Shown here: one piece after another, positions 31,281-35,619 of the stretch | Position numbering within the stretch: position 1 is the first letter of the stretch | Layout of the letters: each line of letters begins with the position of its first letter | Source: Octopus sinensis | Lineage: Eukaryota | Reading direction: 5' to 3' | Assembly: GCF_006345805.1 (NCBI RefSeq) | Contig: NC_043022.1 | Span: 15,252,001-15,316,000, forward strand | DNA length: 64,000 nucleotides | Translations under genes and position numbers: made by a program | The notes under the pieces: model-generated | Databases searched by the model: none | What the model was told of the DNA's origin: nothing | What the model saw: the letters and a program-made list of their open reading frames with translations, nothing else

Positions 31281-32119
31281 GTTTGCTATTGTTGTTATAC
31301 ACAATGATGTGGAGTGGTCAATAATGTGAGAAGTTAATTTAATTGATTAATATAACGGAAATATTAGAGGTAACGACACTGACAACGGTAACAACAACAA
31401 AAATAACAACATCAAACAAGAACACAACCACAACAGCTGTAACATCAACATTATTAAAAATAACAACAACAACAGTCAACAATCACAACAATAATAACAA
31501 CAACACCAGTATGGTGGACTCTGCTGTCATAGATGACCAACAAGGGTTTTGTAATTTCTTGCTGGACATCCAGAGGGATGATTTGTTTATAGTGATCAAA
31601 TGTTTGTGTTGTACATTAAGCTCACACCGTCCATTAAATTGACATTACCTGTACAGGTGCACGAGTATATATAAAAATAAAAATAAATAAATGTTCCTTC
31701 TCGAGCCATGCCAGGCTCATAAGGGCCGGTTTCCCGGTTTCAGTGGCGTAGAAATTCCCCACCTGGACGGGACGCCGGTCCGACACAGGATTACTCACTT
31801 TTGCCAGCTGAGTGGACTGGAGCAATGTGAAAATGAAGTGTCTTGCTCAAGGACACAACGCATCGCCCGGTCCAGGAATCGAAACCACGACCTTGCGATC
31901 AACACCCTAACCACTAAGCCACGCGCCTCCACAGGTGCACGAGAATGTCATATGTCAGGTGTTGAAAAGAGCAACAAGAAATGTGTTTTTGCACAAAAAT
32001 ACAACGTACTACCCAGGCTGGGGATTGAACCCACTGTCGTGAGTGCAACACCATAACCACCAGGCTACGAACCTTCACAATAACAACAACAACAAGAAGA
32101 AAAAGGAAAACCAACTCAC

Positions 32120-32254
32120 CACCTGCATCTCTCCACATACTTGCTTCACCAGTTTGTGGCATCGCTTGTGCACTAACAGCTTGCAGTTGATGCATTTGTA
32201 CCCTTGACGGCCGAGACCCCAGATGCGGTCGGAGCAGAAATAGCAGACGGCTCT
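32120..32254 (-). CDS. aPKC: aPKC C1 exon (135 nt): [45 protein letters not shown]
   Basis: ttcttgacacag acceptor, GTG|gtgagt donor; Cys/His pattern of the atypical C1 domain. Confidence 0.96.
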
Positions 32255-32380
32255 CTGTGTCAAGAAATGAAAGGCGTTAAACTGGGCCCTGATGTAGTGC
32301 ACCGTCTTCACGACAAGCCGGACCAACGACACGATGGCTCTGGGCAGAACCGGAACCAGCTTGAGCAGCTTGAAAGCCAT
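32255..32380 (-). CDS. Candidate alternative N-terminus read directly into the C1 exon: [42 protein letters not shown]
   Basis: ATG-initiated, 42 open codons in frame with C1; GC/CpG-rich against AT-rich flanks. Confidence 0.5.
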
Positions 32381-33486
32381 CGACGACCGTTTCGAAAAAT
32401 GTCCAAATTAAATTCGACTAAAACTCAACTCAAACACAATAAAAACTACAATAATGATAATAATAATAATAATATTAATAATAATAATAATTATACAATA
32501 ATAATAATATTAATAATAATAATAATAATAATAATTATACAATAATAATAATAATAATGTTTTCTTTAATTAAAGAATAACAAAGGACACATAATTATTT
32601 AAAGAATAATGAACATTGCAATTTTATACATACACACATATATACACACATACATATATGTATATACATATGTGTGTGTATATGTTTGTGTGTGTTTGTG
32701 TGTGTAAATGTCTCTAAATAAATGTTCGTACATGTGGTTCACACGCACACCTGCTACATATACAAGTCTCTAAGCACATGTATAGATCTGCACATAAATA
32801 TGAATGTTTATATGAATGGATCGCATGGTTATACGTAGGTACATCTACAAGATACATGAATGGTGTTTGTTTGGTTTTTTTTTGTTAATTAACAAAATTA
32901 TTAAAATTACTAATTAATAAAAAGAAATTTCCTCTTAACGATCACGATCCAACCAGTTAGCTTTCCCCCCCGTTTTCTTTCTCAAAACTTTTCTTCCGCT
33001 TTCAAATTCTGTTCATAATTAATCCAATTAGCTGTCGAAGGTGATAACAACACCGCTGCTCGTTAACAGGATCACAGCACCTTAAAGAAAGACACCCCCC
33101 CAAATGTTTCCAGGTAACTTTGCAATGCTTTGGCACACTGGATGAGAGTCATAACAACAACACTGGAAGTCGGTGGAAGTCACTGTGATACCTGGTCGTC
33201 AGCTGGCGGCAAGAGTGCCCCGCAGAGAAAGATATACATAGATTATATCCATAGCCAGTGTGAAGGAAGGAGGGGGCAATCTATATACATACATAAATAG
33301 ACAGGTAGGTAGGTGTGTGTGTGTGTATTAGTGTATTAGTGCACTAACGTTCTTTATTTAATTTGAAGTGGAGATGAATTCAGAAAATAAAAACAGGAAA
33401 ATATACGAGACATCTTGAAAGACGATGAAATATACTGCGGAAGACATGTAACAGGTGTGCATTGAACAGCATGTGTTTATGAGGGC

Positions 33487-33535
<49 letters not shown>

Positions 33536-35017
33536 TAAATATATGCCAGTGTGTGTGTGCGAGAGTGTTTTGTGCGCGATCTGAAGTGCGGGATTTGCCT
33601 TAAGAAGAAATGATTGTTTGACTTTTTCTTCGTCTTGGTTTCCACATCACCAGTTTCCCCCACCTTCCTTCCGTTCCATTTTTCTCCTTCCCTCTTCTTC
33701 GAACAGTAGTAAACTAACAGGTTGGGTCAGCCTTCACAGTCGCTTTACAACAGACCGGTTTGTCATGGTAGGAGTGGTGGTGGTGGTGGTGGTAGTGGTT
33801 GAGCCACTGATATTAGCTGTAGTAGTGACTGGGGGGTGGAGTGCGGTAATATAAGTTGTATTTGAGATTGTAAAGGTACTGCTGACCATGGTGGTGGTGG
33901 TAGAAATAGCAGTGGTGATAGCAGTCTAGGTGGTAGTGGTGATTGTTGCGATGGCCAGGGCAACGCTGTGTAGTGATGTTGATGTTACAAGAGTCAGTGG
34001 TGGTGGTGATATCATCATCATCATCATTTAACGTCCGTTTTCCATGCCAGCATGGGTTGGACGGTTCGACCGGGGATCTGGGAAGCCAGGAGGTTGCGCC
34101 TGGCTCCAGTCTGATCTGGCAGTGTTTCTACAGCTGGATGCCCTTCCCAACGCCAACCACTCCGCGAGTGTAGTGGGTGCTTTTTTACGTGCCACAGGCA
34201 CAGGGGCCAGAAAAAACAAACAAAAAAAATTATGTGTGTGTATGTATGTATATGTGTGTGTGTTTGTCCTCCCAACATCGCTTGACAACCGATGCTGATG
34301 TGTTTACATCCCCGTAACCTAGCAGTTCGGTAAAAGAGACTTACAAAGGATAAGTCCTGGGGTCGATTTTGCTCAACTAAAGGCGGTGCTCCAGCATGGC
34401 CTCAGTCAAATGACTGAAGCAAATAAAAGAATAAAAGAATAATAAAAACCACTGCTGTAGAAATACAACAAAATGCCAGAGGCAGGCTTGAACTCACGTA
34501 GCCACTGGACGGATTGTTCATTACCTATTCAGTCATGCTGTTAATATAATCCCTAAGTAGGATCACCCTGAACAGTGACACAGGTATAATCCAATGAATG
34601 GGCTTCTACCCAGTTTCCATTTACCCATTTTCCACTTGCAGGTATTGGGTCACCCCAAGACTACAGAAAAAGGGGGGAAAAATCACTTGTCCAAGATGAC
34701 ATGCAATAGGAGTGAACCCAGGACCTCATGGTTGCAAAGCAAACTCCCGAACCATTCAGCCACGTTGTGGCCACAACACACTTGTGTGTATGTGTAAAGA
34801 TGTGCACCTGTGTATTTACTGCGTTCACACACACACACATATATATATGCATCTGTGTCTATTTCTAGACATGTGTGTGTAAGCCTGGTACTTATTCTAT
34901 CAGTCTCTTTTGCTGAACCACTAAGTTACGGGGATGTAAACACACCAGCATCAGTTGTCAAGCGATGATGGAGAGACAAAACACAGACGAACAGACAAAT
35001 TTATAGCATGTATTTAT

Positions 35018-35533: not shown

Positions 35534-35619
35534 CTTTGAGAACCGTTTTGCTTGGAATAAATGACCATTGATTCTGTACAGTTTTCTCCAACGCCTAGCA
35601 CCTCTCCGATAAATGTTAC
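35534..35619 (-). CDS. aPKC: aPKC pseudosubstrate exon (86 nt): [29 protein letters not shown]
   Basis: gttcag acceptor, AAG|gtaacg donor; canonical aPKC pseudosubstrate and first C1 His. Confidence 0.97.

Follow-up and report, generated by a model that had tools for sequence, protein, structure and literature searches.

The closest described counterpart of the locus considered here is vertebrate PKMzeta, which is reported to arise from an internal promoter of Prkcz and to lack both the PB1 domain and the pseudosubstrate, with constitutive activity as the predicted outcome (PMC7104321, PMC3517905). The same reviews describe the internal promoter as the vertebrate route to a PKM and cleavage as the main route in invertebrates, and in Aplysia 5'-RACE is reported to have found no alternative start (Bougie et al., cited in PMC6539039). 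A second point of reference is provided by hybrid first-internal exons, which are described as common in human and enriched in brain and testis, with the 3' splice site retained (10.1101/2021.05.27.446076, PMC11797052). Our analysis of an octopus atypical PKC (aPKC) gene suggests, with a probability of about 0.6, that its C1 exon is a hybrid exon of this type, and that an internal start with translation from an ATG at 32380 on the minus strand yields an aPKC without PB1 domain and pseudosubstrate. An internal-start isoform had been proposed in the initial annotation of this DNA, and it is the best reading of a leader sequence that is coding-like, present in RNA and silent in its listed variation.

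The window, which is the whole stretch of 64,000 nucleotides of Octopus sinensis DNA that was analyzed, holds most of one aPKC gene on the minus strand. Its exons match an O. sinensis record annotated as PKC iota-type (P0128), and the PB1 domain, pseudosubstrate, single C1 domain and kinase domain follow in order, which together with the Pfam domains of the matching records identifies the gene as an atypical PKC. The exon at 35534-35619 (minus strand) encodes the pseudosubstrate, the linker and the histidine 13 residues before the first C1 cysteine (His -13); it ends in phase 0, is spliced over a 3,279-nt intron to the C1 exon at 32120-32254 (minus strand), and is omitted in the candidate isoform. 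The C1 exon encodes 45 residues (RAVCYFC...CGEMQV) common to the normal and the candidate isoform, matches isoform P0128 at 100%, and was found in one copy in a genome search. The normal 3' splice signals, a pyrimidine tract and CAG at 32255-32284 (minus strand; located from the sequence and from spliced contigs), are also the last ten codons of the candidate leader, and they include a TTTAAC at 32281-32276 that we take to be branch-like. Spliced contigs join at the C1 acceptor in all four sequence runs analyzed, so the exon is used as an internal exon and its 3' splice site is intact.

Several other features of the gene were observed. Three hinge micro-exons (25860-25828, 19481-19452 and 12378-12364, minus strand) are alternative in the annotated isoforms; they recall the Aplysia hinge inserts that bear a calpain site, and a cleavage route may coexist. 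A methionine directly N-terminal to the kinase domain (GME[RQ]G; 7797-7795, minus strand) is present in 7/7 cephalopod-type aPKCs and, at that position, in 0/5 of the other molluscs compared; translation of the catalytic domain alone might begin here, and no in-frame intronic ATG precedes that exon. Many annotated Octopus isoforms (P0005, P0121-P0126, P0128, P0130 and P0131) have an insert of 74-105 residues in the kinase C-lobe after EDYLFQ, past the low end of the window, which may be a poison or mis-annotated exon.

The candidate leader occupies the 126 nt before the C1 acceptor (32255-32380, minus strand) and was delimited by its frame, its GC content by codon position and RNA contigs. Translation confirms that it opens with the ATG at 32380, with G at +4, and stays open through 42 codons in the frame of the C1 exon; the peptide (MAFKLL...HFLTQ) is exactly as first read, with three Lys, three Arg and no Asp or Glu. 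The initial annotation had also judged this sequence unlike an intron, citing its ATG, its open frame and about 11 CpGs in 130 bp of a CpG-poor intron. The ATG and open frame lie within chance, as leaders of at least 42 codons are found in 47/897 pseudo-acceptor frames, and leaders of 39-40 codons at 2/14 other real acceptors. The 11 CpGs are present but in 146 nt (32255-32400), with seven in the leader ORF and eight in the last 130 nt before the acceptor, and the intron is only moderately poor in CpG (o/e 0.49). This CpG density is matched or exceeded in 0.86% of 146-nt windows in a scan of the whole stretch, in eight places including the leader, and five of the seven others overlap dispersed repeats. 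The leader is single-copy in its own genome in both DNA and protein searches.

The part of the claim that does go beyond chance is codon-position bias. GC content at codon positions 1, 2 and 3 of the leader is 0.55, 0.29 and 0.79, in the frame that continues into the C1 exon. None of 20,000 shuffles reached this bias, nor did any of 50,000 shuffles or 30,000 Markov sequences when any phase was allowed, and the first 32 codons taken alone give a p of 6e-5. In the rest of the window (60,413 windows per strand), a single stop-containing trinucleotide repeat reaches the same cut-offs, which were chosen after the leader was known. The bias ends at the ATG, with GC values of 0.35, 0.35 and 0.30 in the 69 nt 5' of it. 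GC at the third position (GC3) is high in both the leader (33/42 codons) and the C1 exon (32/45) versus 171/379 in 13 other exons (Fisher 3e-5 and 1e-3, respectively), as if leader and C1 exon formed one unit.

A search of sequence runs with 32230-32430 listed 24 runs, of which two are genome-sized and 22 were taken as RNA, a type that is a guess for runs of which none is on record as RNA. The share of words found was full in the two genome-sized runs, 0.41-0.53 in four presumed RNA runs from four studies, and 0.00 in the other 18 of the 22, a value that is not proof of absence. The contigs of these four runs (X1-X4; four studies, two organism labels), which were picked for their leader content, were aligned to 31960-32449. 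The spliced pseudosubstrate-to-C1 junction and contigs with the leader are both present in each of the four; the junction contigs leave the C1 exon at the acceptor and continue into the letters of the pseudosubstrate exon's end. The leader contigs, all unstranded, cover 32228-32398 in X1, 32227-32355 in X2, 32301-32434 in X3 (a single adapter-flanked fragment that does not reach the exon), and 32227-32279 (twice) and 32250-32445 in X4. In three of the four runs they carry 27-28 letters of the C1 exon, which falls short of the 31 that a formal bridge requires, and three contigs cross the ATG into the 5' flank, as far as 32398, 32434 and 32445. No joint or loose end inside the leader is listed among the contigs of the four runs, and no near-identical contig was found on 31960-32068 or into the intron 3' of the exon, the repeat at 32069-32115 having been skipped. 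These contigs show that the leader is present in RNA; they are uninformative on transcription start, strand and level and thus no proof of an internal promoter, and contig depth was not used to rank isoforms. In X4, two contig pairs differ by one letter at about 32249 and both run into the leader, pointing to leader-containing RNA from each of two alleles.

Three substitutions are listed within the ORF and all are silent: ATC>ATT (Ile), in X1 at low depth and in X4, and CTC>TTG (Leu), two changes in one codon, in X4. Of the six frames, the leader frame is the only one in which they are silent. The chance that all would be silent is 0.018-0.037, or 0.07-0.12 if they are counted as two events, in a test based on three letters that fall in two codons. 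A further four differences, close to the ends of contigs, are unlisted and so fall outside this classification, and the sole indel, a single nucleotide at 32395 seen in one run, is outside the ORF, 15 nt before its ATG. The silent-only variation adds a small amount of independent backing for selection on the leader peptide. An antisense ORF is also open in the register of the leader, and the listed changes are non-silent there.

The alternative that survives this evidence best, although we consider it unlikely, is that the leader is untranslated and belongs to pre-mRNA or to a detained intron, its codon bias being what is left of an exon that has died, or a side effect of some GC-rich element that acts in splicing or in chromatin. 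The frequency with which an ATG and 42 open codons occur before pseudo-acceptors is in keeping with this, as are the selection of the runs for leader content and the lack of a 5' end in their contigs. Full retention of the intron would lead to a stop at the 18th intron codon, as in a regulatory detained intron. In addition, none of the 31 annotated members of seven cephalopod-type aPKC clusters, ten O. sinensis isoforms among them, carries the leader; gene calls from Logan would miss it because de Bruijn contigs branch at the acceptor, whereas RefSeq would not. An untranslated leader is harder to reconcile with a periodicity that keeps to the frame of the exon and ends at the ATG, and with listed changes that are silent only, the double change in the Leu codon included. 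Nor does a stable RNA fold supply the constraint: with a z of +0.93, both a fold of this kind and a role of the leader as RNA structure or editing partner were rejected, and no A-to-I-like change is among the differences listed in the leader for the contigs of the four runs.

How an internally started transcript might enter the leader was considered from the sequence of the 5' flank. The stretch at 32381-32445 (minus strand), present in RNA contigs, is a candidate 5'UTR; it has no ATG, and it contains an in-frame stop (32410-32408) ten codons 5' of the leader ATG. No AG lies between this stop and the ATG, and translation of all 42 codons therefore requires initiation at the ATG itself. The base at -3 is T, making the start context weaker than the G at +4 implies. 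Directly 5' of the covered stretch is an (AAT)n repeat (32450-32558), seen in the sequence and the contigs. There is no ATG between 32591 and 32381, and there are 28 between 33800 and 32592. The initial annotation had suggested unique, CpG-containing sequence at 32.9-33.75 kb as a 5'UTR or promoter. As a plain unspliced 5'UTR this is unlikely with 28 upstream ATGs in the path; RNA that starts just 5' of 32445 (somewhere from about 32590 to 32445), or that takes its 5' end from an exon spliced in from further upstream, would fit better. Sequence searches indicate that the region at 32900-33770 is indeed single-copy except for a short simple-sequence match, with a CpG excess that is modest (o/e 0.63), and it may hold a promoter or an upstream non-coding exon. 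A TTTTAG at 32423-32418 (minus strand) is a possible acceptor. Splicing to it from the pseudosubstrate exon would add 46 codons followed by a stop, in another frame (32417-32278), and hence be a possible poison form; two contigs cross this TTTTAG unspliced.

Under the preferred reading, the C1 exon would be used in two ways, either spliced to the pseudosubstrate exon or transcribed from a start within the intron, most simply one at 32590-32445, where no upstream ATG is in the way. Translation from the ATG at 32380 would then give an aPKC of ~500 residues and ~58 kDa; with the hinge of isoform X9, the computed product has 505 residues and about 58 kDa, compared with 72 kDa. As the PB1 domain and pseudosubstrate are encoded 5' of this ATG, both would be absent from the isoform if it exists, together with the linker strand and His -13, and the C1 domain would probably be destabilized. 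The pseudosubstrate and C1 domain are both described as engaging and repressing the kinase domain and as binding membranes (PMC10754278, PMC10435729), and deletion of C1 is reported to raise basal activity (Graybill et al., cited in PMC6539039). Because both elements repress the kinase, the isoform is predicted to be disinhibited and deaf to Par6: it would be largely free of autoinhibition, with high basal activity, and by analogy with the forms described in PMC7104321 and PMC10754278 we infer constitutive kinase activity. Transcription and the weak start context, not activators, would then determine how much of the active kinase there is. Degradation has been reported for conventional PKCs whose autoinhibition is impaired (PMC10586763).

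The absence of a histidine 13 residues before the first C1 cysteine, noted at the outset, is confirmed: the leader has Gln at -13 and His at -18 and -8. His -13 comes from the pseudosubstrate exon in the normal isoform and is invariant in 29/29 canonical rows, so the candidate, with Gln, would lack one zinc ligand of an intact C1 domain. An AlphaFold model of low confidence (pTM 0.35, mean pLDDT 65, no zinc) replaces the linker and first C1 strands with a helix at residues 14-42, whereas in a canonical control with a like alignment the linker and C1 strands are formed (pTM 0.61); pLDDT over the C1 domain is 57-70 in the leader model versus 74-89 in the control. In a fold look-up the control matched C1 domains (Z 8-10.5), and the leader-plus-C1 model retrieved no C1 structure among the 92 chains listed (best Z 3.9), a result with which a C1 fold is still compatible. 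Residues from about 4 to 30 of the leader are suited to a helix that is both basic and amphipathic (moment 0.65, shuffle p 0.011), which may take the place of the polybasic pseudosubstrate as a membrane anchor; given translation, we would put this at about even odds.

The initial annotation had instead likened the leader to a mitochondrial presequence, and a variant of the preferred reading would have the kinase imported and the leader cleaved. Length, positive charge, a lack of acidic residues and amphipathicity are described as presequence features (PMC12895284), and the leader, at 42 residues within a range of 10-70, with a net charge of +6, acid-free and amphipathic, has them all. Such general features are weakly specific, as a quarter of random short peptides are reported to be imported, and Arg content is described as weighing heavily in prediction (PMC13684279). 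The leader is not rich in Arg or Ser/Thr, with three Arg (two of them in the first 30 residues), one Ser and two Thr in 42, and it has two Pro. The priming phosphorylation of the kinase is cytosolic. Targeting to mitochondria therefore has a weak case, membrane binding is likelier, and we put import at about one in five if the leader is translated; as an account of the locus as a whole, a cleaved presequence seems quite improbable.

More doubtful still is a start further downstream, in which ribosomes bypass the weak ATG at 32380 and initiate at the next in-frame ATG (32126-32128, minus strand), three residues past the last C1 cysteine, so that a true catalytic-domain PKM is made and the 42-codon form is minor. 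This ATG has G at -3, versus T for that at 32380, vertebrate PKMzeta is described as starting right after C1 (PMC6539039; in exon 6, PMC7104321), and fish PKCzeta records have a Met one residue further on. Against it, three out-of-frame ATGs lie between 32380 and 32128, and the Met is present in three named Octopus sequences but absent in four of seven cephalopod-type sequences and also found in a fish PKCiota; moreover, such a start would leave the apparent selection on the leader as protein unexplained. Least probable of all, and very much so, is that the leader is an in-frame 3' extension, with the pseudosubstrate exon spliced to an AG inside it and the brake kept, since although there are in-frame AGs at 32369, 32360, 32306 and 32282 that would insert up to 38 residues in C1 and likewise yield codon bias and silent variation, their pyrimidine tracts are poor and three contigs cross AGs and ATG into the 5' flank.

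Searches for relatives of the leader returned no counterpart within their scope. At six genomic loci of other animals, 0-12 open codons precede the C1 exon, and a metagenome scan gave eight loci from 207 pattern matches, none of them with cephalopod C1 sequence. No relative was found among the best 120 of 999 protein matches (154-2000 aa) or in 95 matches of 55-177 aa, a search of 1.84 billion representatives gave three matches (two repeats and one C1 read-through), and a search of the ESM Atlas gave no usable match; none of these four results implies absence. In the literature covered, with subscription journals and supplements such as long-read isoform tables outside its scope, we found no such octopus or cephalopod isoform. 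In register, residues -20 to -13 of the leader show a likeness to PKC delta and beta, with shuffle p values of 3e-4 and 2e-3, and the last 60 nt of the leader are identical to the pseudosubstrate exon at 24/60 positions. The view of the leader as a linker-strand substitute or decayed copy was nevertheless not accepted, as an equally good match (20-25/60 nt, BLOSUM up to 24) is given by a LINE-like frame that is unrelated and was selected out of 6,832 candidates, and as the AlphaFold model has a helix here. A LINE origin was rejected as well, at about 30% DNA identity in register. The genome contains an abundant element on many contigs that we take to be LINE-like, whose frame ends in a Cys/His finger that scores against C1 and swamps genome searches with it. 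Short N-termini that replace PB1 and keep the pseudosubstrate were also seen in records from annelids, sea urchins and amphioxus (P0017, P0033, P0048, P0050, P0057 and P0105); they are often basic and hydrophobic, and alternative aPKC N-termini seem to have arisen repeatedly.

A further reading, speculative and in our view rather unlikely, is that octopus has independently evolved a brake-free aPKC made by transcription in neurons, where it would maintain long-term memory as PKMzeta does, by a route so far held to be vertebrate-only; this would involve an internal promoter and a newly arisen membrane helix of 42 residues in place of PB1 and pseudosubstrate. An octopus aPKC transcript without the pseudosubstrate would mean that the transcriptional route arose a second time and independently, in the invertebrate of richest learning and by a different design, in which the splice signals of an existing exon also encode a new amphipathic N-terminus. 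Even if it has no part in memory, the isoform would be an aPKC that is unannotated and independent of Par6, and would clearly exemplify a new coding N-terminus derived from intron sequence. The leader supplies unique primers, probes and peptides with which a persistently active aPKC can be tested for in octopus long-term memory.

A comparison of the candidate with described aPKC forms shows likenesses to several of them and a design that differs from each. As in vertebrate PKMzeta, PB1 and pseudosubstrate would be removed through an internal aPKC transcript. PKMzeta is described as beginning with an exon of its own, 1', which is joined to exon 5, with a start in exon 6 after C1 and no new peptide; the start of the octopus candidate would sit one intron further along, in unbroken sequence with the C1 exon, and the product would have 42 new residues ahead of a truncated C1 and the whole hinge. 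Aplysia PKM Apl III is likewise a molluscan aPKC freed of its regulatory region, and the octopus hinge similarly has alternative micro-exons, but PKM Apl III is made post-translationally by calpain, unlike the octopus candidate. The sea urchin isoform Pl-aPKC-1 (P0105), reported from 5'-RACE and western blot (PMC3113769), resembles the candidate in having a short alternative N-terminus for PB1, although this and similar annotated PB1-less isoforms retain the pseudosubstrate and whole C1 and would thus still be autoinhibited. Aspects of the candidate also recall the aPKC isoforms of Helix lucorum (deltaC1, X1 and KD), in which the regulatory region is altered at the C1 exon and internal caps are proposed; deltaC1, however, skips the C1 exon, and the authors are described as doubting the capping sites, with the kinase-only form unconfirmed (PMC6539039). 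In human hybrid exons, starts are reported to center on the 3' splice site, whereas octopus RNA covers no less than 190 nt on the 5' side of that site, and the octopus exon would have a coding-like N-terminus overlapping the splice signals, unlike the human cases described. The initial label of PKM-like holds as a functional analogy; in the strict sense, a PKM has no regulatory region, C1 included, and starts or is cut in the hinge, and the candidate would retain the hinge together with 45 residues from the C1 exon. The candidate would thus be a PKM in its working and a hybrid exon in its build, outside the strict definition of a PKM.
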